53,500 nucleotides of DNA from Thermoproteota archaeon (GTDB lineage: Archaea; Asgardarchaeota; Jordiarchaeia; Jordiarchaeales; Freyrarchaeaceae), in the NCBI GenBank assembly GCA_029258835.1, contig JAPDJY010000033.1, forward strand, positions 1 through 53,500. The letters run 5' to 3'. A program made the translations under genes and the position numbers. The notes beneath the pieces were generated by a model. It saw only the letters and a program-made list of their open reading frames with translations. It was not told the DNA's origin and searched no databases. This document shows, piece by piece, positions 1 through 36,735 of the stretch (position 1 is the stretch's first letter; each line of letters begins with the position of its first letter).

Positions 1-2693
1 TTCTCTATTCCATGTCTTTTCAGTATCCAGAAATAACTGAATTCCTCTTTGCCAAGCCCTGACTTATTTTGCTCTTCTTCTGCTTTTGCTATATCCTCTG
101 CTATTTTTGTTAATTCCTCTAAGGCGGATTCTACACTTCTTTGCCTCTCTCTTAGTTGCGAAATAATCTCCTCAACTTTTTCGGCTATCGAAACTAAATA
201 GGGACTTTCCTTTCTTCTGTTTTCAATGTGTATTTTTATACTTCTATAAAGACTTGCAACTTTTACCCTTTGAGTAACTTTGTCCGCTTTAATAGTGCTA
301 GCTATATCCTCATTTATTTCATAAAGCGGAAGATTATCCGCTATATGCAAAAGCTCAACATTTTCTTTTATTAGATCTTCGGTCTTCTTAAGAATATCCC
401 TTCTTATTTTTCTTCTCTCCGCCTCTGGATTATAAGTCTGATAAATTATCTCATAAATCTGCACCAACAGTTTATATCTCTCAATATAATCTCTCAAGAA
501 TTCATCTGGGGATAAAATTTCATATATCTCCTGAATCTGCTTGAAGATTTTTGTATATTCCTTTCTCTTTTCTTCGTCAAAGAAATAATCAATTATATTC
601 TGGATTCTTTTCTCCTCATCTTCTAAATCAATCTCTTTTAAGATCTCATCAGATTTCTGCATTAGGTCTTTAAACCTCTCTTTGAGTTTTTCATAGTCGA
701 TAAGACCCGCTTCCACATCTCTTGAATAAAATGCTAAAGCCCTCTGTAGATTCTCAAAGATTCCTATATAATCCATAACTAATCCGCATGTTTTTCCTGC
801 GTAAGGCCTGTTTATCCTTGCTATTGCTTGAAGCAAAGTATGATCTTTCAATGGCTTATCGAGATACATCACATAGAGGATAGGAGCATCGTAACCGGTA
901 AGAAGTTTTTCGGTAACAATAAGAATCTTAGGAAGTTTTTCAGGCGATTTAAAGTCTTTTCTGATTCTCTTCTCTTCCTCATCAGAAATGTGGTATTTTT
1001 TGAGCAGTTCGCTATCTTTATAATTTCGTGTATATACAACTTTTGTGTAATCTGGCGGTAAATACTTGTCAATTGCCTCTTTGTAAAGTGCACATGCCTC
1101 CCTATCAACTGCAACTATGAAAGCCTTGAATCCAAGAGGTTCTATAAATTTCGTATAGTGCTCAGCTATATGTTTAGCTATGTTATCAATTCTATCCTTT
1201 GCCTTTAGCACAGCCTTTAGTTTTTGTGCTTTCTCTATGATCTTATTTATTCCTTCTATACTTGCTATTCCCTCCTCTTCAACAACCCTGAAAAATTCCT
1301 CCTCAAGCATTTCCTTATCAACATGAAGTTCCGTTTTTGCAAGCGTGTAATATAATGGGACTGTTGTCCCTTCCTCTATGGATTCATCTATTGTATACTT
1401 GTCAAGATAAGGTTCGTCCGGTGGATAACCAAAGGCTAAGAATGTGCCCCTTCCAACTTTTGTTTTGTCTACGGGTGTGCCTGTAAATCCGAAGTAAAAA
1501 GCATTAGGCAATGCTCCACGCATGTAATTACCTAAATCACCCTCCTGACTTCTATGTGCCTCATCTATCAGCAAAATAATATTTTCTCTCGTGTTTACGT
1601 GCTTTGGCATTCCTTCAAATTTGTGAATAGTTGTTATAATGAGACCTCTATAATCACTTTTAAGCAACTCTCTTAAGTGATTTTTACTTTCAGCTCTAAC
1701 AATATTTGGATAACCATAAGCCTGAAAATTCTGATAGATCTGATGCTCCAGTTCAATCCTATCAACCACAACAATGATTGTAGGGTTCTCAAGTTCTGGG
1801 ATCTTCCTTAACTCATCCGCTGAAACTATCATTGTAAGGCTTTTGTAAGCCCCTTGAGTATGCCATATTAAGCCTTTCTTTTTCTTTTCCTCTAATACCC
1901 TTCTTATGATTTTTACAATTGCCCTTCTCTGATGCTGTTTCAAGATATATTTCTGGAGTTCTTCGTCGATGGTCATAAAAACAATGTATGAGCGTAGAGT
2001 TTCAATAACTTCCCTTTTGTTAAAAAATGATTTTACAATTTTCTCAAAATTAAAACCGTTTTCAACTTTCCATCTATAAAATGTTTTACTTTCATATTTC
2101 CATGTAGGACCATAAAAAAGCCTTATTCCTTCTGAAACAGCATAAAACTGAATATATTTGAAAAGTTCAGGCAAGACGTTGTTGTATATTCTCACCTGCT
2201 CAAAAGCTTCCTCCTCAGCCTCCCAGACTGTTGGGCTTTTAAGCTCAAAATCACAGATAGGTATGCCGTTTATGAAAAGAACAATATCAAGCCTTCTTTT
2301 TTCCCTATCCTCAAACCAAAACTCCATTGTAAAGGCAAAATGATTGTTCTCAGGGTTCTCAAAGTCAATCAATTTGAAATTTCTCTCCCTTTTCTCTTTT
2401 TCAACATAAACGGTTTTTCTTCCCCTTATATACTCCAAAAATTCCTGATTACCTGTAAATGTGGAAGGTATAAGCCTTAATCTCCTTATCACATCTCCGA
2501 CATTTTCATCTGTTATTATTCCTAGATTAAGTTCTTTGAGCTTTCTTTCAAGAATTTCAAGAATAAAAGGTTCTCTAATATCAAAACCTCTCTTCTCCTG
2601 CAAGTCAGCAGGCGGAATATACTCCCAACCTATCGCCTGAAGGTAATTTATAACCCTATTCTGAACATCCCTTTTCTCAGTTATGAGTCTCAT
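1..2693 (-). CDS. hsdR: Type I restriction enzyme R subunit (3' end runs off the window)
   Basis: Manual translation from ATG at 2693: MRLITEKRDVQNRVINYLQAIGWEY... Nuclease motif DIVLFINGIPICDFELK, Walker A WHTQGAYKS, DEAH box LIDEAHRSQEG, and FGFTGTP. Lies downstream of hsdS/hsdM. Missing from the ORF track because there is no stop in the window. Confidence 0.95.
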   Translation of the reverse strand, partial: MRLITEKRDVQNRVINYLQAIGWEYIPPADLQEKRGFDIREPFILEILERKLKELNLGIITDENVGDVIRRLRLIPSTFTGNQEFLEYIRGRKTVYVEKEKRERNFKLIDFENPENNHFAFTMEFWFEDREKRRLDIVLFINGIPICDFELKSPTVWEAEEEAFEQVRIYNNVLPELFKYIQFYAVSEGIRLFYGPTWKYESKTFYRWKVENGFNFEKIVKSFFNKREVIETLRSYIVFMTIDEELQKYILKQHQRRAIVKIIRRVLEEKKKKGLIWHTQGAYKSLTMIVSADELRKIPELENPTIIVVVDRIELEHQIYQNFQAYGYPNIVRAESKNHLRELLKSDYRGLIITTIHKFEGMPKHVNTRENIILLIDEAHRSQEGDLGNYMRGALPNAFYFGFTGTPVDKTKVGRGTFLAFGYPPDEPYLDKYTIDESIEEGTTVPLYYTLAKTELHVDKEMLEEEFFRVVEEEGIASIEGINKIIEKAQKLKAVLKAKDRIDNIAKHIAEHYTKFIEPLGFKAFIVAVDREACALYKEAIDKYLPPDYTKVVYTRNYKDSELLKKYHISDEEEKRIRKDFKSPEKLPKILIVTEKLLTGYDAPILYVMYLDKPLKDHTLLQAIARINRPYAGKTCGLVMDYIGIFENLQRALAFYSRDVEAGLIDYEKLKERFKDLMQKSDEILKEIDLEDEEKRIQNIIDYFFDEEKRKEYTKIFKQIQEIYEILSPDEFLRDYIERYKLLVQIYEIIYQTYNPEAERRKIRRDILKKTEDLIKENVELLHIADNLPLYEINEDIASTIKADKVTQRVKVASLYRSIKIHIENRRKESPYLVSIAEKVEEIISQLRERQRSVESALEELTKIAEDIAKAEEEQNKSGLGKEEFSYFWILKRHGIE

Positions 2694-2699
2694 ATCTCC

Positions 2700-3056
2700 C
2701 ATCCTCTTCCTTTCAATTATTATCCTTTTTAAGTTTTTCTTTCAGAGCTGGAATGTCAACGGTTATTATGTCTCAAAAAATTATGCCTAAAATCTACACC
2801 AAACTTATCTTATCTCTTGTTCTTACAATTCCACACCATTCAACATCCTGATATTTATTCTTCAGGACACCCGAGATATTTTTTAGATGCTTCTCCAAGA
2901 ATCTCTACATTCCTTACCACAACATCCACAACCAAATCATTCTTATAAAAAATTATCGTAAAATAAATCATTTGTACATTTCAGCATCTTTTCACATATA
3001 AAGTCACATGCAATAAGCATGTCCATCACGAGCTCTTTATCTCCTTACTTAGGCAT
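2700..3056 (-). pseudogene. Degraded HepT/DUF86 HEPN toxin
   Basis: Fragments VVRNVEILGEASK, KYQDVEW and RTRDKI, interrupted by stops and frameshifts. Follows an MNT remnant. Confidence 0.75.
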
Positions 3057-3317
3057 ATTCAATTCCCTCTTTATTTCCTCTTTCACATGCTTTTATTCTT
3101 ATGGACCAACACCATCCGGGACTAAAGGGCCATTTCTTTGCCAAAAACCTCCTTAAGAAATCCAACAAGATCCGCAACATTTTTTAAATGTGGTTTACCT
3201 CTCTTGAGTTATGTAACAATATCGATGTCGCTCTCTCCCCTGCTTCACCTCTTACAAAAGAGCCAAAAAATCCCCCATTATTCTTTTCTTTTAACCCTTA
3301 ACCTTTTTTGCCATCAT
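3049..3317 (-). pseudogene. Degraded MNT (minimal nucleotidyltransferase) antitoxin
   Basis: ATG overlaps the hsdS stop (ATGA). Remnant GFFGSFVRGEA..ESDIDIV with frameshifts and stops. Confidence 0.75.
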
Positions 3318-4555
3318 ACCTCCACCTCTTTAAGCCTTATCTCTCCACTCATCAATTTATGAAGCATTGTTTTAAATAACTCCTTCAAACTCTGCTTTCT
3401 TTTCTGCTCAACCTCTATTTTCTTATCTACAACGCTTAAAATGTGAGCGGTTTGCTTTTGTTCTTCAAGAGGGGGAAGGGGGATTAACAAATTCTCTAAG
3501 GCATTACGAGGGAGTCTTTTTCTTCCAGTTGTTCCTTCCATTTTTGAAGTCAGATCACTTCTTATCCTTGGAAGCCTTAAGTATTCAAAAATATATTCTC
3601 TAATTATGTCTTCATCCTTAGGATGAAATGCAAAAACTTCAGTAGTTGCATACCCAAACTCCATAGGCAAATTTGTTAAAAGAGCTTGCTTTCCATTTTC
3701 AAATGAAGGAGTTATTTTAGCTACAATGATGTCATCTTTGAAAACAAAAGTCCCACTTGATATTTCTGAATATTTTTTCATCAACCACCCTGCATATTTA
3801 CCCGAATCTGGTATTAGCTCCATAGGAATAAAGGGAATCTCATCATTTTCTTTTATTCTTAAGTTTCTCGGTTTTCTACTAAATTCGACAACCCTCTCTA
3901 ATCTCACCACTTTCCAGCTCTTCGGGATTAATCCTATTTCCGTTTCCTTCTGCTCCTCGCCACAAAGCCCTTCTGTGAATAGCTTTTGCATGAGCGATTT
4001 TTTGAGGTTTTTAGCCTGCTCTATGATTCTGTCCTGAATTTCAATGGCTTTTTGAATTGTGTCAAGAACCTTGGCAATTTTGCGTTGCTCGGGAAGAGGG
4101 GGAAGGGGGATTTTCTTCTCTTTTAATAATGGAAAATGTCTGTTGTAACCTCGGCTTGGTATATTCAAAGTAAGAAAAGCAAAGAATAAAAATTTAGGAT
4201 CAAATAACTCTTTATTTGGGATAAGCACTTTCACGCCGTCAGCTCCAACTATGAAGGGAAAATCTACAAACTTAAAGATCCTTGTGTGGTCTCCAAATAT
4301 TATAACAGGTAGAGGGCCCCGGTAAGCTTTTTCATCATCATCACAAAATCCAGCGATGTAATTCTGACTTTGATCTATCACAGGGTATTTTCCAAATGGT
4401 TTATACTCTTGTTGTTTTATCTTTCCAACTCTAATTTTTTTCTTTAAAATAGCTCCTTCAAACCTCACCACTTCCCAATCCTTAGGAATCAAGCCGACTT
4501 CTGTTTGTTTGAAGTTGTTTTCTCCCTCAAATTTTTCAAGTGTTTTCTGTGCCAT
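3314..4555 (-). CDS. hsdS: Type I R-M specificity subunit
   Basis: Two-TRD architecture with repeated conserved blocks (TEVGLIPKDWEVV / TEIGLIPKSWKVV; IPLPPLPEQRKI / IPLPPLEEQKQ) and a C-terminal LMSGEIR. Confidence 0.96.
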   Translation of the reverse strand: MAQKTLEKFEGENNFKQTEVGLIPKDWEVVRFEGAILKKKIRVGKIKQQEYKPFGKYPVIDQSQNYIAGFCDDDEKAYRGPLPVIIFGDHTRIFKFVDFPFIVGADGVKVLIPNKELFDPKFLFFAFLTLNIPSRGYNRHFPLLKEKKIPLPPLPEQRKIAKVLDTIQKAIEIQDRIIEQAKNLKKSLMQKLFTEGLCGEEQKETEIGLIPKSWKVVRLERVVEFSRKPRNLRIKENDEIPFIPMELIPDSGKYAGWLMKKYSEISSGTFVFKDDIIVAKITPSFENGKQALLTNLPMEFGYATTEVFAFHPKDEDIIREYIFEYLRLPRIRSDLTSKMEGTTGRKRLPRNALENLLIPLPPLEEQKQTAHILSVVDKKIEVEQKRKQSLKELFKTMLHKLMSGEIRLKEVEV

Positions 4556-30731: not shown

Positions 30732-32000
30732 TTACCCCTTCAATTTTAATCCCTTCTGGCACATTTTTGCAACGGTTTTTATTTTCTCTTCACTGTACTT
30801 AAGTAGTAGCATGCCGTTCTCTTTTTTGACTTTAACGGTGTTTCTTTCAAATCCTGAGTGAGCTAGAAAGTTTCTTTCATCGATTTCTCCTATTTTTCTC
30901 CCTATTACGCTATTGTACGTTTGCCAGTCTCCGACCTCTTTCCCCTCTAGATCCGTTTTTAAGGAGTGAATGTCATTCTCGATCCTCTTCTTTAAGCGTT
31001 CATCGAATTTGAAAAGGTTTTCTGTTAAGCTTTCGATCTCGTTGAGTGATACTTCCTTTTTCTGTGAAGAAACTAATCCTTTATCGCTTAGTAACGATGC
31101 AATCATGTAGGCGAAAACGTAGACTTTAAGGTCGTTTCCCATTCTTACTCGTCTCGTTACTCTCAGTTTACCCTGGCTTTCAACCTTCACATACTTTTCA
31201 TACAAGTTCAAAGTTGTAAGTATGGTCTCCCTTAACCTGCTTTTTTCAGGGTAGAACCTGAAGAGGGCGAGGGGTAAACCGTTGTATAACGCTCCGATGA
31301 AGGCTGAAAGCTCTAAATCGTCTATTTCCCTAACCTTCTTTAACTCATCCTCGAAAAGCCTCCTTCTCTCGTCGGGGCTTAGGTTTAATGGCTCTAACGG
31401 CCTTTTCTGGGTGATCTTTTCAGTGAAGGGTGTTGGGGTGGGGGCTGACTCCTCTATTACGTTGATGGAGAGCTTATCCGTTGCCGACGGCAGTGATGGA
31501 TCCGCGTTATACGCTGTAAACCGGGCTTCCTTGAAGATAGAAATGGCTTCCGCCATTTCTCTAATAGCCTTATAGGTGAGGATCGCCGTGTAGTTTATGC
31601 CATGGGTTAAATCAAGATGTATGCTCAGCGTGTCACCTACGTGTTCGAGAAGGATGAATGCGACCCTTGCAATAACGTAATAGTAGTAGTCGAGTGCTCC
31701 TCCGTGGAAGGCTCCCCTCGGAAAGACTCCTACTCCCGGAGCTATTAGCACCTCGTAGCCTTCCAGCCCGAACCTGTCAGCGTATTCCCTTATCTTCTCC
31801 TCAGCGTCCACCTTCACATCATGATAGTTTCCCCCTTTCTCTGCGAGCGTATCTAAACCGATTATTACCGTTCTATCCGGGTCTATAGCGTCCTGAAGAA
31901 CCCTTAACGAGGTATACGCCTCTGCACTCTTTCCACCAAACACGTAAACCACCCTCCTCCACCCACCCGGATCCCCCCACGGGGCTATTAAGAGCTTCAT
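30732..32000 (-). CDS. csx1: CRISPR-associated CARF-HEPN ribonuclease Csx1
   Basis: APWGDP, DLTHGINY (DxTHG), YNADP and HEPN RNFLAHSG. Confidence 0.95.
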   Translation of the reverse strand: MKLLIAPWGDPGGWRRVVYVFGGKSAEAYTSLRVLQDAIDPDRTVIIGLDTLAEKGGNYHDVKVDAEEKIREYADRFGLEGYEVLIAPGVGVFPRGAFHGGALDYYYYVIARVAFILLEHVGDTLSIHLDLTHGINYTAILTYKAIREMAEAISIFKEARFTAYNADPSLPSATDKLSINVIEESAPTPTPFTEKITQKRPLEPLNLSPDERRRLFEDELKKVREIDDLELSAFIGALYNGLPLALFRFYPEKSRLRETILTTLNLYEKYVKVESQGKLRVTRRVRMGNDLKVYVFAYMIASLLSDKGLVSSQKKEVSLNEIESLTENLFKFDERLKKRIENDIHSLKTDLEGKEVGDWQTYNSVIGRKIGEIDERNFLAHSGFERNTVKVKKENGMLLLKYSEEKIKTVAKMCQKGLKLKG

Positions 32001-32005
32001 GTCCC

Positions 32006-33025
32006 TTACACCTCGAAGTACCCGTAGCCGGCAGACGTCCTCGCGCCGATGCCGCAGCTTTCCAGCGCCTCCCTGAGCAGGCGTTTCGCCTCTCCAACTA
32101 GGTCCCTGTCCCTTGACGCTAAGGCGAACCTGAACTTCACTCCTTCCACGGCTAGGAAGAACACTGGGCTCGGCTTCACCCAGTCTCCCGGAGGCGTTCT
32201 GCCGCTCCTATCTTGGTAGTACTCCTTGTAGTGCACGTTCACGACGTCGAGGACTATGAAGCACTCGTTTTCCCCGCTTAAAACGGGTAGAGCATCGAAA
32301 AATATTACCTTCCCCTTTTGGCTCCGCGCCCCGAACACGTCAATTAACGTCTTAAACTTAACCCCGTCCACCTCGACGCCCAAGTCTTCACCCTTCTCAA
32401 GTGCCGCGTCCACCCTCCTAGCGGCATCCCCGTAGGGGGTTCCCTCCAGCTTCTGGATGGCTCTGGCAAACTTTCGAATGGACAGGTGCCTCGTAGCACC
32501 CTTCACAGCGCTCCCCGGAATGTAGGGAACCGAGTAATTCCTGTGGAGGAGTAGGGATGCCTCGTAGATGCTTGCGGCACCCAGGTTTACAGCGAGCCTC
32601 CAGCTGAGAGGGAGCCCTGACCGCTCATCAGGCAGATACTCCACGTGGAACCCCATTTCCCCCAGCGTGCTGAGCATCCGGGTCATCCTACTCATGTATG
32701 ACTCGTAAACGCTAAGTGGAACCGCGTCGACTGGTACACATAGCCTCCCGTCCTCCGCCAGCCTCCTCCTGAACTCCCCGTTGGGTATGCTGAAATCCCC
32801 TAACAGTCCTTTCACCTCTTGGGGGTCACGGCAAACCTTCCTGAGAAGGGAAACCTGGACGTCTAACCCGTGCTCCCACCTGCCCTCCTCGTCATCGTAA
32901 CACCACAACACGTACTTGTCAAGGAATAGCCCAAGGTTTAGCTCTCTGCCTTTCACGGCGCCGGCCACGACGTCGACAACCTCCCCAGCCGGCCTCTTAG
33001 AGGAGATGAAGCCCCTCATCATCAC
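32006..33025 (-). CDS. cmr6: Type III-B RAMP Cmr6
   Basis: PYIPGSAVKG, GKVIFFDALP, DVVNVHY, P.P..FLAV and GIGARTSAGYG. Confidence 0.95.
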   Translation of the reverse strand: MMMRGFISSKRPAGEVVDVVAGAVKGRELNLGLFLDKYVLWCYDDEEGRWEHGLDVQVSLLRKVCRDPQEVKGLLGDFSIPNGEFRRRLAEDGRLCVPVDAVPLSVYESYMSRMTRMLSTLGEMGFHVEYLPDERSGLPLSWRLAVNLGAASIYEASLLLHRNYSVPYIPGSAVKGATRHLSIRKFARAIQKLEGTPYGDAARRVDAALEKGEDLGVEVDGVKFKTLIDVFGARSQKGKVIFFDALPVLSGENECFIVLDVVNVHYKEYYQDRSGRTPPGDWVKPSPVFFLAVEGVKFRFALASRDRDLVGEAKRLLREALESCGIGARTSAGYGYFEV

Positions 33026-33096
33026 CCATCACCCATCACCCATCACCCATCACCCATCACCCATCACCCATCACCCATCACCCATCACCCATCACC
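33020..33096. repeat. Perfect 7-bp tandem repeat x11 (CATCACC; GGTGATG on the coding strand)
   Basis: Eleven exact units counted, spanning the cmr5 stop and the cmr6 start. Confidence 0.97.
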
Positions 33097-33510
33097 CAGC
33101 TCCGCTTCTGCAAACCTCTTCATCCAGCCGAGTAAAGCTATAATTTCCCTCGCAGCATGGAAGACCATCGTTGATGGCGTGTCCTCTCCGGTCATCCACT
33201 CAAGGATATCCCTCCCCTCTTTAAACCTCTTCCTGAACCAGCCGTTAAGGTGCTCGTAGACCAGCTTATAGGCTTTCCCCTCGGTGCTCATCCCTCCTTC
33301 CCCCCTCTTCAAGTCAGGCTCAAACTTAGACCTGTAAAAAGCCATGGTGTTCCCTAAACCGTTTACCTGAATGTAAGATGCCGCCCTCCTAACACACGAC
33401 TTGTACCTTCCCTCCAAGTCAGCATCTCCCTTTACTTCTCGAATGCACTTCCACGCGTATCTAGCTCTTTCCTGCTCAAGGAGCCGCAGCACTCCCCACC
33501 CCTCCTTCAA
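33085..33510 (-). CDS. cmr5: Type III-B small subunit Cmr5
   Basis: LEQERARYAW, IQVNGLGNTMAF and WMKRFAEA. Confidence 0.93.
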   Translation of the reverse strand: MKEGWGVLRLLEQERARYAWKCIREVKGDADLEGRYKSCVRRAASYIQVNGLGNTMAFYRSKFEPDLKRGEGGMSTEGKAYKLVYEHLNGWFRKRFKEGRDILEWMTGEDTPSTMVFHAAREIIALLGWMKRFAEAELGDG

Positions 33511-34432
33511 CCATCTTCACCCTCACAAACCCCCTCCCAACGGTCTCGCCTCCTCCTACCTGCAGTATCCTCCCCCCGTACCTCTTGAGCAACTCCACGA
33601 CGTCCCCGGCCCCCCGCGCGCCAAGCCTGCTCGGAACTAAAATCACAGAGTACATTATGGTGTCTGCCGGCAGATACTCCTCGGACCACAGTCCACCCGC
33701 CTCCACAGTTCCGGTTTCAGGGCTTACCTTAACCCTCGTAACAACCTCCGTCGTGAATAACACCAGGTCTCTGAAAACATCGTCGGAAACCACGATCAGG
33801 TCTCTTCTGAGCTTCTCCCTAACCTCCCGGTAGACTTCACCCTCCGGCACCGCCCCCACCACCTCCTCTGCGACGGCGTCTACGACGCTATCCCTCTCGC
33901 ACTTTAACTGTAAATCCTCTACATAAACGTACTCTTCTGCCTGCGATCGCGTGCAGACCATGGCTTCCTCGCAGCCGGCAGGCTTCGGAACAATCCAGTT
34001 AGCCTTGACGCCGGCTAACTCCAAGTCCCTTCTATACCTGTCCAGAACCAGTGGGCAGGTAATCCAGCTGAACACGCCTTTTAACGTTCTAACGGGGAAC
34101 GCGAGAACCCTGGCGTCGGTCACCGTGACCCCGCCGGCTCCATTACGTGCACCGAATATTTGACTGCAAAGTTCGCATGCCTCCCTCACCTCGCCGGCCT
34201 CCCTTACCGGGCACCGCCCACACTCATCGCTCAGCGCGATGCCGCCATCCTTGCTGGCCCCTTTGGGCGCACTCCTCAACACGCCTTTAAGCGAGGATCC
34301 CCGTATGATCGGGAACCCGGTGTGCCTCTCCCTCTGTATCGGCAGGTCGGCAACCTCGCTGACGGCCAAGCCGCCTCCCGGATGCAGCGGGGTTTCCGCG
34401 TACATGTACATGACTAAGGCTTTCTCAAACAT
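33476..34432 (-). CDS. cmr4: Type III-B RAMP Cmr4
   Basis: AETPLHPGGG, DLPIQRERHTGFP (catalytic Asp retained), DARVLAFPVR, LWSEEYLP and QVGGGETVGRG. Confidence 0.96.
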   Translation of the reverse strand: MFEKALVMYMYAETPLHPGGGLAVSEVADLPIQRERHTGFPIIRGSSLKGVLRSAPKGASKDGGIALSDECGRCPVREAGEVREACELCSQIFGARNGAGGVTVTDARVLAFPVRTLKGVFSWITCPLVLDRYRRDLELAGVKANWIVPKPAGCEEAMVCTRSQAEEYVYVEDLQLKCERDSVVDAVAEEVVGAVPEGEVYREVREKLRRDLIVVSDDVFRDLVLFTTEVVTRVKVSPETGTVEAGGLWSEEYLPADTIMYSVILVPSRLGARGAGDVVELLKRYGGRILQVGGGETVGRGFVRVKMVEGGVGSAAAP

Positions 34433-34453
34433 GTTACCACCTTGCGAAGCCAA

Positions 34454-34986
34454 ACCTTAAATCGGGCGTTTTCATCGGAACCTCCACCGGTAAGCCAAGC
34501 CGCCTCCACCCTCTCCGTTAAGTAGACGGCTCCAGCATCCACCACTTCCACAATGGCTTCTCCTACGATAGGACGCAGCCGCCCATCTTAACTTGTCAAC
34601 TAGCCATGAAAGAGCATCACGCAGCATTCCAGCACCCCTCCCGGCAACCTCATCCCGTAACCCCTCTTCTTCAAAAGCATTTTAACATTTTAACCATCGC
34701 ATATTCGCGTACATTCTCCCTGCACCACTCCTTTGCACCCTCCATCTAATTTTTCGGCGAGATCGTAAATGAACCTACCGGAGAGCTTCCCCTTTCTCCC
34801 TCCGTCCAGGCGCCTCTATCACCTACGAACCCCTCTTAAACCCGCAACTTGCCCACTGGATGTAGCACCGTGAACGCTTCGCTAAGGCTGCGCGAAACCC
34901 CCCTTCTTTTCCTTTTTTCTCCCTCCATCGCACCTTCAACCTTACCTGGAGGGGTGTGGAGGGGCGCTTACTCCGCTAGAAGCCAT
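34454..34986 (-). pseudogene. Collapsed remnants of cmr2/cas10 and cmr3
   Basis: ATG coupled to the upstream stop, then fragments F*RSK..APLHTPPGK (cf. Cmr2 LHDPP), LHPVG and KLSGRFIYDL, followed by Cmr3-like LRP..VVDAGAVY..SDENAR. About 0.5 kb in total. Confidence 0.65.
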
Positions 34987-35384
34987 CACCCCTCCTCCTC
35001 GATCCTCCTCTTAATCTTCTCATACACGTCTTGCAGACAGTCGACGTACTCGTTTTTAATTTTCCTGAAGATTTCACGGGCTTTCTCCATTTCGTACGTG
35101 TGTACAAGAGTGTTCCTGTCCTCTATCATCTCCATCCAGAGACGCTCATCTTCTATGATCTCAACCCGGCGTGCTTCTCTGAACGTGTCACGCGGCGACC
35201 TACAGATTATGCCGACATCAGCCAGGTACTCCTTTATAAGCTTCCATACGAGCTCGTAGCATAGCTCAAACCGCTTAATAGCGCCGTCAACTTCAATGTC
35301 TGTCCGTGCAACCTCAACCCCCTCCCTGAGGTTTCGTAAAGCCTTCTCGTAGTTAGTGAAGTACCGTTTAACCCTCTCTCTCAT
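34986..35384 (-). CDS. HI0074-family HEPN (nucleotidyltransferase substrate-binding) toxin
   Basis: DGAIKRFELCYELVWK, SPRDTFREA and DRNTLVHTY (Rx4HxY). Confidence 0.92.
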   Translation of the reverse strand: MRERVKRYFTNYEKALRNLREGVEVARTDIEVDGAIKRFELCYELVWKLIKEYLADVGIICRSPRDTFREARRVEIIEDERLWMEMIEDRNTLVHTYEMEKAREIFRKIKNEYVDCLQDVYEKIKRRIEEEG

Positions 35385-36735
35385 ATATGACCACCCCTTC
35401 CCTCTCCATCAACTCCTCTACGTCCTTAGAAGTCCTCCTCAACCAAACGATGTCCACGGGGATATCCTCCCTCATGACCGGCTTCTCGGAGTCAACCGCC
35501 AGGTCGATGTCTGCACCCCTATGAGCATCCCCCCTAGCCCTGGAACCGAAAAGAACGATCCTCCTCGGGTTCACCTCCCTCCTAACCCTCTCAACTATCT
35601 CATCCAGCACGAGAGGCGTAAGCAGAACCCTCTCGCACCCTGCTCTCCTCACCTCGCCCCAAAAGCCGTCTATAGCCGTATAATCCGGCTTCTGCGTAAC
35701 CCTCCCGTCGGTAACCACCCAGCCCTCCGGCAGAAACTCCCCTGAAAGCCTTATTAACCCCCAGTAGTAGCTCCCCCCAGACCTGAACACCTTAAATATT
35801 AACGGGGATGAGCGCCTATCCACCCTCCTACCCCCCTCATCCCTCCCGAAAACCGTAACTTTCCCGTGGGAGACCGGGAGGCCGAAAACGGCCATGTCCA
35901 AGTAGTTTCCTCTGTGCTCGAATCTATACCTCTCATACCTCTTCCCTATATCGTTCAAGGCGTCCTTCCAGGAACTCCACGCCTTCCCTGACACGATGAT
36001 CCGCGAAAGACACAGGTTCGAGTACCTGGTTGAGAAACCCCTCGGCTTCTCGCCGTCGTTCACGATCCTCACGGCTTTCTCCACGTTTTCCACAACCCAG
36101 TCAACCACCCTCCTAGACCCGTCCTTGTTAAGGGTGAAGTCCAAGCCGGTTAGGGAGGACGCATAATCCGGCGCTCCCCCCCGGGGTGAAATGGTTAAGC
36201 CTCCAGCCCCCCTTCTAGCCCTAGCGCCGAAGTTCCCCAAGTATACTGCACACCAAAAGCACGCTAACACCTTCCTCAACACGTCCTTGTCATCACAGCT
36301 TAAGTCCACTGTAAACCTTGAACCCGGCTCTATGAACGGCCTCCCAGCGTCAACCACCCCCCCGGCCGTAACCATTAAAAGATACGCAACACCCGAATCC
36401 TCCCCCGTAACCCTACGATTCACCTCGTCAAACCCCACGTTTAAACCCATCCTCTCGCTAACCTTAAGCCTCCCCTTAACGCCGCTTCTCACAGTAACCC
36501 TGCTTTTAACGAGCGAAGAGCCAAAAACCTTCTCCTCCTCACGCAGCAACTCCCGTAAGTTATCGGTCGCCTTCAAAGCCCTAAACCACCACCTCAGCAC
36601 ACCCCTCAAACTCGGCGCCCGTAAACCCTCACCCTCCACGCTCCTCTGATCCGCACCGGCAATAAACAGGGGAGTTACACTCTCCAGCTCAAAGGCCACC
36701 CTCACGTCTTCCAACCCCCAACACGGCTCCAACAC
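35368..36735 (-). CDS. cmr1: Cmr1 RAMP fused to C-terminal MNT domain
   Basis: VTPLFIAGA, LRAPSLRGVLRWWFRA, GNFGARARRGAG, FGLP and RRSSPL, then in frame IVLFGSRARGDAHRGADIDLAV...EGVVIYE. Confidence 0.92.
   Translation of the reverse strand: MLEPCWGLEDVRVAFELESVTPLFIAGADQRSVEGEGLRAPSLRGVLRWWFRALKATDNLRELLREEEKVFGSSLVKSRVTVRSGVKGRLKVSERMGLNVGFDEVNRRVTGEDSGVAYLLMVTAGGVVDAGRPFIEPGSRFTVDLSCDDKDVLRKVLACFWCAVYLGNFGARARRGAGGLTISPRGGAPDYASSLTGLDFTLNKDGSRRVVDWVVENVEKAVRIVNDGEKPRGFSTRYSNLCLSRIIVSGKAWSSWKDALNDIGKRYERYRFEHRGNYLDMAVFGLPVSHGKVTVFGRDEGGRRVDRRSSPLIFKVFRSGGSYYWGLIRLSGEFLPEGWVVTDGRVTQKPDYTAIDGFWGEVRRAGCERVLLTPLVLDEIVERVRREVNPRRIVLFGSRARGDAHRGADIDLAVDSEKPVMREDIPVDIVWLRRTSKDVEELMEREGVVIYEREG

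Follow-up and report, generated by a model that had tools for sequence, protein, structure and literature searches.

A GGTGATG heptamer array of variable copy number at the cmr5/cmr6 junction of an archaeal CRISPR module

The cmr module and the array at the cmr5/cmr6 junction

The window (the whole 53,500-nt stretch of DNA that was analysed) belongs to a metagenome bin of 2.72 Mb in 91 contigs, with an estimated contamination of 6%. It carries a module consisting of a Cmr1 fused to a nucleotidyltransferase, a HepT-like gene, cmr4, cmr5, cmr6 and csx1. The genes cmr4 (33476..34453, minus strand; TIGR02580, 233.6 bits), cmr5 (33085..33510, minus strand; PF09701, 104.5 bits, and TIGR01881, 80.8 bits), cmr6 (32006..33022, minus strand; TIGR01898, 166.2 bits) and csx1 (30732..32000, minus strand; TIGR01897, 247.7 bits) were assigned by HMM matches that all lie above the curated cut-offs of Pfam and NCBIfam, and cmr4 and cmr5, which share the operon, have overlapping frames. 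Cmr4, Cmr5 and Cmr6 place the module in type III-B (Cmr), with no Cas10/Cmr2 or Cmr3 found in the same module: in genome-wide searches, matches to these two proteins lie only on contigs C49 and C16, and the gene calls of related contigs show no Cmr2 or Cmr3 between the HepT gene and cmr4. The Cmr1 fusion (34986-36735, minus strand) has an MntA-like nucleotidyltransferase part, and its layout is conserved in all related contigs, where the gene next to it gives HepT-like/NTase_sub_bind matches in the gene calls. In addition, the genome has a second, complete type III-B-like operon (C49:6112-15717), in the order Cmr2/Cas10, Cmr3, Cmr4, Cmr5, a second Cmr4-like RAMP, Cmr6 and Cmr1.

A tandem array of 11 perfect GGTGATG units (33020..33096, minus strand, read from 33096 down to 33020) is located at the junction of cmr5 and cmr6. 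Tandem Repeats Finder delimits it as 33020-33098, with a period of 7, 11.3 copies, 100% matches and a score of 158, and its head-to-tail identical short units make it a heptamer SSR. Each unit holds the SD core GGTGAT, a TGA and an overlapping ATG; a first-pass annotation of this DNA had described 11 copies with an SD-like GGTGA and the overlapping stop and start codons, and this description agrees with the sequence letter by letter. In the other phase, the array reads (GGGTGAT)n, a G3N4 tract. Nine perfect repeats (unit 2-12 nt, total length at least 24 nt) occur in the 2.72-Mb genome, and the array is the second longest of them. A whole-assembly pattern scan revealed no second site with three tandem GGTGATG units, and a sample of 399 other genomes of the phylum contained no array of at least four units. 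The array is thus far beyond chance.

The longest perfect repeat of the genome, (AAACA)25, lies outside the window (C35:3528-3652) in an AT-rich spacer between divergent ORFs (2473-3243, minus strand, and 3736-4110, plus strand), and may be a promoter-region tract. An Rfam search over 32700-33400 returned nothing at E values up to 1. A plus-strand ORF with HHPSPIT repeats (32916-33143) runs through the array antisense to cmr5 and cmr6, and was taken as spurious. In predicted folds of 33000-33115 (minus strand), the upstream flank of the array (GAAGCGGAGC) base-pairs with the downstream flank (GCUUC...CUCC); according to this model, the array would be the loop of a hairpin formed by its flanks, whatever the copy number.

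The cmr5 frame ends with ...KRFAEAELGDG*, its TGA (33087-33085) lying in unit 2, and units 1 and 2 supply its last three codons and stop (GGT GAT GGG TGA). The cmr6 start is the ATG at 33022-33020 in unit 11, with the GTG at 33025, from which the frame is open, and the ATG at 33019 as alternatives. Because 24 homologues have an N-terminus M(N)KGFF at the position aligned with this start, either the unit 11 ATG or the next ATG is the start codon. The HMM matches and the translation bear out the earlier gene calls, with cmr5 stopping in unit 2 and cmr6 starting in unit 11. The cmr5 stop and the cmr6 start are 62 nt apart, and this gap (33023..33084, minus strand) is filled with SD-AUG-UGA mini-ORFs, an ATG in a middle unit opening the mini-ORF MGDG*. 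From the ATG of unit 10, an out-of-frame ORF of 10 codons, MGDDEGLHLL* (32997..33029, minus strand), overlaps the cmr6 start. Both kinds of short ORF had been noted before and were reproduced by our translation.

The 16S rRNA gene of the genome (1515 bits with the archaeal model) has the 3' end ...GGATCACCTCCT, and GGUGAU can therefore pair with six bases of the rRNA tail. An SD match of 5 nt or longer was present in the 20 nt before the ATG at 47% of 327 operon-internal starts (starts closely behind an upstream ORF), as compared with 13% of random positions, and the SD spacing peaks at 5-9 nt genome-wide. The GGTGAT of unit 10 (33028..33033, minus strand) is the SD for the cmr6 ATG, its GGTGA core ending 6 nt before the start; likewise, every ATG of units 2-11 has a GGTGA ending 6 nt upstream. 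With its complementarity to 16S rRNA, a spacing within 5-9 nt and a genome that uses SD motifs, the cmr6 start qualifies as an SD-led initiation site. For n=2-12, opening the region from the cmr6 SD to the AUG at 75 C has a predicted cost of 2.3-2.9 kcal/mol that shows no trend with n, and no copy-number effect on ordinary RNA structure was thus seen at the cmr6 ribosome site. The first-pass annotation had cautioned that de novo initiation at the SD motifs might blunt an effect of copy number; given an SD 6 nt upstream at any n, such initiation is probably the main route to Cmr6. Further downstream, csx1 starts 5 nt past the cmr6 stop with GAGGTG ahead of it, an arrangement suggesting that csx1 is probably translationally linked to cmr6 and would follow it.

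Copy number in related strains and origin of the array

The Cmr6 cluster at 90% identity has eight members, and their contigs were compared. All eight contigs that span the junction (L019, L020, L021, L022, L024, L025, L027 and L028) carry exactly three units. Right beside the array, the window and these eight contigs are letter-for-letter equal, and their longer flanks are 98.3-100% identical to the window; L027, which has three units, matches the window at 100% over 1443 nt downstream. Neither alleles of 4-10 units nor any even allele were seen among the eight spanning contigs, and the 11-unit allele is known from one assembled contig.

Three other contigs start at the array edge: the three units are preceded by TG in L023 and L026 and by G in L029, the last being 100% identical to the window over 1442 nt. 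When de Bruijn graphs were simulated, no contig broke at the array edge for a 3-unit allele alone. The start at TG, followed by three units, appeared at larger k (31, 55, 99) only if the 3-unit allele was mixed with a longer one, and the start at G, likewise with three units behind it, appeared at k=23 for any array of at least four units. The three further assemblies therefore show indirectly that alleles of more than three units exist, although a SNP in the last base ahead of the array would interrupt the contigs in the same way; some of the other assemblies are possibly re-assemblies of the same read sets and so not fully independent. One related sample, Ga0180301, is hydrothermal sediment of the Guaymas Basin (PMC6478937). 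A scan of JGI metagenome contigs for further alleles gave only two contigs already in the comparison, and searches of genome collections found no close relatives by Cmr6.

The copy number differs between close relatives with the same flanks (11 vs 3), as is expected of an SSR. The comparison of related genomes that the first-pass annotation had proposed thus uncovers heterogeneity, with three units in eight contigs and 11 in the window, and the slipped-strand change that it had invoked gains support from the 3- and 11-unit alleles between 98.3-100% identical flanks and from the contig breaks at the array edge. Judging by these comparisons, natural strains differ in copy number, and the allele with 11 units arose by expansion only recently.

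In relatives with ~54% Cmr6 identity, cmr5 and cmr6 have an ATGA stop/start overlap (-4), the final cmr5 codons contain an SD (GGTGA or GGAGG), and no tandem repeat was found at this junction. The array is derived, because these relatives carry the plain ATGA overlap without the repeat. A junction with GGTGA...ATG would have been duplicated to three units in the species and later expanded to eleven in the lineage of the window, the step from 3 to 11 being apparently quicker than a single substitution in 1.4 kb. A single-unit version of the cmr5 frame (33000-33100, minus strand) would read ...AELGDDEGLHLL*, and the GDDEG in this reading resembles KDKEG at the same place in the Cmr5 tails of relatives (L034, L032). 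This likeness hints that the ancestral junction had one unit.

With dN/dS of 0.13-0.20, cmr6 and csx1 are, on codon comparison, under purifying selection; the csx1 differences comprise 95 synonymous and 79 non-synonymous ones. Relaxed selection on a decaying module does not agree with dN/dS of 0.08-0.26 for cmr4, cmr5, cmr6 and csx1. Meanwhile, csx1 of the window is only ~86% identical to csx1 of L019, L020 and L024, whereas cmr1-cmr6 and the region past csx1 are 98-100% identical; L027 and L029 carry the csx1 type of the window. Since dS is 0.45 in csx1 as against 0.02-0.03 in the neighbouring genes, the csx1 allele was probably replaced by recombination.

Effect of copy number and alternative readings of the array

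Neither protein depends on the copy number once n is at least two, since unit 2 then always holds the cmr5 stop and the last unit the cmr6 start, and the same context of SD, 6 nt and AUG is rebuilt by the last two units at every n. The stop-to-start gap equals 7(n-2)-1 nt, which gives -1, +6 and +62 nt for n=2, 3 and 11, respectively. PMC10666635 reports that coupling in Haloferax volcanii reporters was down 40-60% at +13/14 nt and lost at +22/23 nt, that coupling in E. coli reporters was down 40-80% at +13/14 nt and almost all lost at +38 nt, and that -8 to +10 nt was treated as predictive of coupling. The window allele, at +62 nt, lies outside the overlap or ~10 nt within which termination-reinitiation is expected. 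By analogy with the haloarchaeon and E. coli, the 3-unit allele could be coupled, and the 11-unit allele could not, unless through a relay of mini-ORFs.

The explanation that we favour, and regard as rather likely, is that a genuine heptamer microsatellite, polymorphic in copy number and recently expanded, has arisen from the cmr5/cmr6 coupling junction. The unit would be the junction itself, combining the SD core GGUGAU, the stop UGA and the start AUG, and replication slippage would be the cause that alters the unit number. Three units would be the usual population allele, from which the source genome would differ by a recent expansion to 11. This expansion would remove direct termination-reinitiation coupling from cmr5 to cmr6, and cmr6, with csx1 behind it, would then be reliant on SD-led de novo initiation, while nine extra decoy SD-AUG mini-ORFs would lie upstream of cmr6 in the 11-unit allele. 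For Cmr6, we infer a net effect that is most likely either small or somewhat negative; the expansion to 11 units was probably close to neutral and did not evolve as a parity switch. The effect could exceed this estimate if ribosomes relayed through the mini-ORFs or a G-quadruplex formed.

Two alternatives concern the unit number itself, either as counted by the ribosome or as counted by the assembler. The first-pass annotation had proposed that ribosomes hop along the TGATG ladder by two units, so that an even n leads to the cmr6 AUG (ON) and an odd n to the out-of-frame ORF (OFF), with parity tuning Cmr6 and perhaps Csx1. The geometry of this proposal is exact, from the stop in unit 2 through each MGDG* ending two units on to the MGDDEGLHLL* from unit 10; with two units, the stop of cmr5 would overlap the start of cmr6 as TGATG (-1), a common natural coupling layout (PMC6728339, PMC10666635). 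However, the alleles seen (3 and 11) are both odd, with no even one in eight spanning contigs, and the two would therefore share the same proposed state; MGDDEGLHLL* also opens at the penultimate unit of the 3-unit allele. The common allele would be OFF, or "uncoupled", yet cmr6 and csx1 are under purifying selection as judged above. In addition, the next AUG lies only +6 nt from each stop, within the range treated as predictive of coupling in PMC10666635, so parity could flip at each relay step, and SD-led de novo initiation at the last unit is possible for any n. We consider the parity switch most improbable and find no support for the claim that an even copy number would couple cmr5 to cmr6. 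An assembly artefact, in which the true number would be 3 or another one and the assembler would have mis-resolved a short-period loop, is very unlikely. Short-period repeats do give loops in de Bruijn graphs, the 11 units occur in one contig alone of a bin with 6% estimated contamination, and L027, identical downstream, has three units. Against this, the 77-nt array is shorter than a typical read and formed one unitig at k=99 in the simulation, and its flanks join without other anomaly. The edge breaks in contigs of three other assemblies, among them the 100% identical L029, are as expected with longer alleles and therefore argue against an artefact peculiar to the window.

Other alternatives grant the expansion and ascribe a function to it. 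The tract may be a selected contingency locus, kept since its length tunes the dosage of Cmr6 and Csx1 gradedly at any parity, whereby subpopulations would differ in type III-B activity like those with phase-variable restriction-modification genes in bacteria. This is compatible with near-identical strains that differ in copy number, with three contigs suggesting mixed alleles within samples, with a place in a defence island, where variation under selection would come as no surprise, with the 5-nt distance of csx1 behind cmr6, through which effects would propagate, and with a gap that goes from inside to far outside the coupling range published in PMC10666635. However, three units are kept in all eight spanning contigs despite flanks up to ~1.7% from the window and dS of 0.01-0.05 in the three strains analysed, so the tract is not hypermutable in its usual state. 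Furthermore, a single expanded allele was seen, none of the 399 phylum genomes has such an array, and the predicted accessibility of the cmr6 ribosome site is constant with n. Phase variation acts by frameshift or promoter spacing, and here the tract is intra-operon between two ORFs with no frame change; our literature search found no specific report of an SSR-switched cas gene or of archaeal phase variation. We regard a selected contingency locus as unlikely. It is distinctly unlikely that a heritable, reversible unit number sets the level of Cmr6 and Csx1 via coupling, decoy initiation or a quadruplex. The quadruplex idea taken by itself is quite improbable: at least four units of (GGGUGAU)n would fold the mRNA or the non-template DNA into one to three G-quadruplexes, which would mask the SD/AUG ladder, reduce the translation of cmr6, or arrest replication and so lead to further changes in length. 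By sequence the array qualifies, having at least four G3 tracts with loops of 1-7 nt, and its 11 G3 tracts with 4-nt loops fit the G3+N1-7 consensus. ViennaRNA at 37 C gives one quadruplex for 3-4 units and two for 11; GGGAATC of Xanthomonas and GGGGAYT of Nostoc were described as quadruplex-forming intergenic repeats (PMC4692102), and earlier work cited in PMC4692102 found quadruplexes to repress translation in an artificial bacterial system. In contrast, ViennaRNA gives none at 70 or 85 C (with a crude temperature scaling), related samples come from hydrothermal sediment, and ribosomes on cmr5 would unfold the first units.

If the length only drifts, the locus is a natural example of a coupling junction that seeds a microsatellite with both genes undamaged, and the breaks that such arrays cause in metagenome assemblies are a warning. 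If the reversible unit number did set expression, this cas operon would be the first reported to have a repeat-driven expression switch, and one of the first such cases in any archaeon; likewise, if length tuned Cmr6 and Csx1, repeat-driven bet-hedging would extend from bacterial pathogens to archaeal CRISPR immunity. The 3- and 11-unit alleles form a natural allelic series for the distance rules of coupling and the cost of decoy starts in an archaeon, and this natural pair makes the coupling, decoy-start and quadruplex ideas directly testable.

Comparison with other heptamer arrays and known systems

The same heptamer recurs elsewhere. Arrays of (GGTGATG)5-18 are present on more than 120 contigs from a diversity of bacteria, and some genomes, such as those of a Coleofasciculaceae cyanobacterium and a betaproteobacterial MAG, have many such loci. 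Among the interior arrays, 66 of 79 lie within 200 nt after the end of a same-strand ORF, and 16 supply the TGA of that ORF from unit 1 or 2, as in cmr5. The idea of the SD ladder as a general device was rejected after a survey of 120 mostly bacterial contigs with at least five GGTGATG units: an ORF of at least 80 aa starts within 30 nt on the GGTGATG strand for 18 of 123 arrays, versus 25 on the opposite strand, a control that is possibly undercounted. Because the bacterial arrays mostly follow ORF ends, GGTGATG appears to be a recurrent microsatellite and not a special archaeal device.

Heptameric intergenic SSRs that vary between close strains are a known class for which polymerase slippage has been proposed (Rehm et al. 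2015, PMC4692102); an excess of heptamers was the subject of a 2007 survey cited in PMC4692102. Like the Xanthomonas GGGAATC and Nostoc GGGGAYT repeats (PMC4692102), the array has a period of 7, a G3 tract plus 4 nt, perfect head-to-tail units, an intergenic position and a variable length, and Nostoc arrays also occur inside an operon (pecE-pecF), as here within the cmr operon. Those families have many loci in bacteria, whereas here a single archaeal locus is involved and the unit is the gene junction. A stop-containing heptamer a few nt from starts is also seen in the TAACTGA repeats of marine Beggiatoaceae, Cyanobacteria and Bacteroidetes (MacGregor 2015, PMC4679880), which number 169 loci in one genome, and for which a translational role was suggested and a protein-binding site proposed (PMC4679880). 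TAACTGA is not an SD; GGTGATG, by contrast, is complementary to the anti-SD and provides the stop and start codons that the two genes use.

The array also resembles the SSR contingency loci of Haemophilus, Neisseria, Campylobacter and other genera in having a repeat at a defence-related gene, a variable copy number and slipped-strand mispairing as its likely source (PMC11868660, PMC2651432). However, those loci act through ORF frameshift or promoter spacing, and the effect here would act on translation initiation or coupling. A further parallel in layout is ATGA/TGATG termination-reinitiation coupling (Huber et al. 2019, PMC6728339; PMC10666635); the parts of these papers that were consulted do not describe a relay through repeated 4-codon ORFs. 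The ~54% relatives have ATGA, the units form TGATG, and the 3-unit gap is +6; with 11 units, the gap of +62 takes the junction past the distance at which reporters lost coupling (PMC10666635), and so sets the window allele apart from that system.
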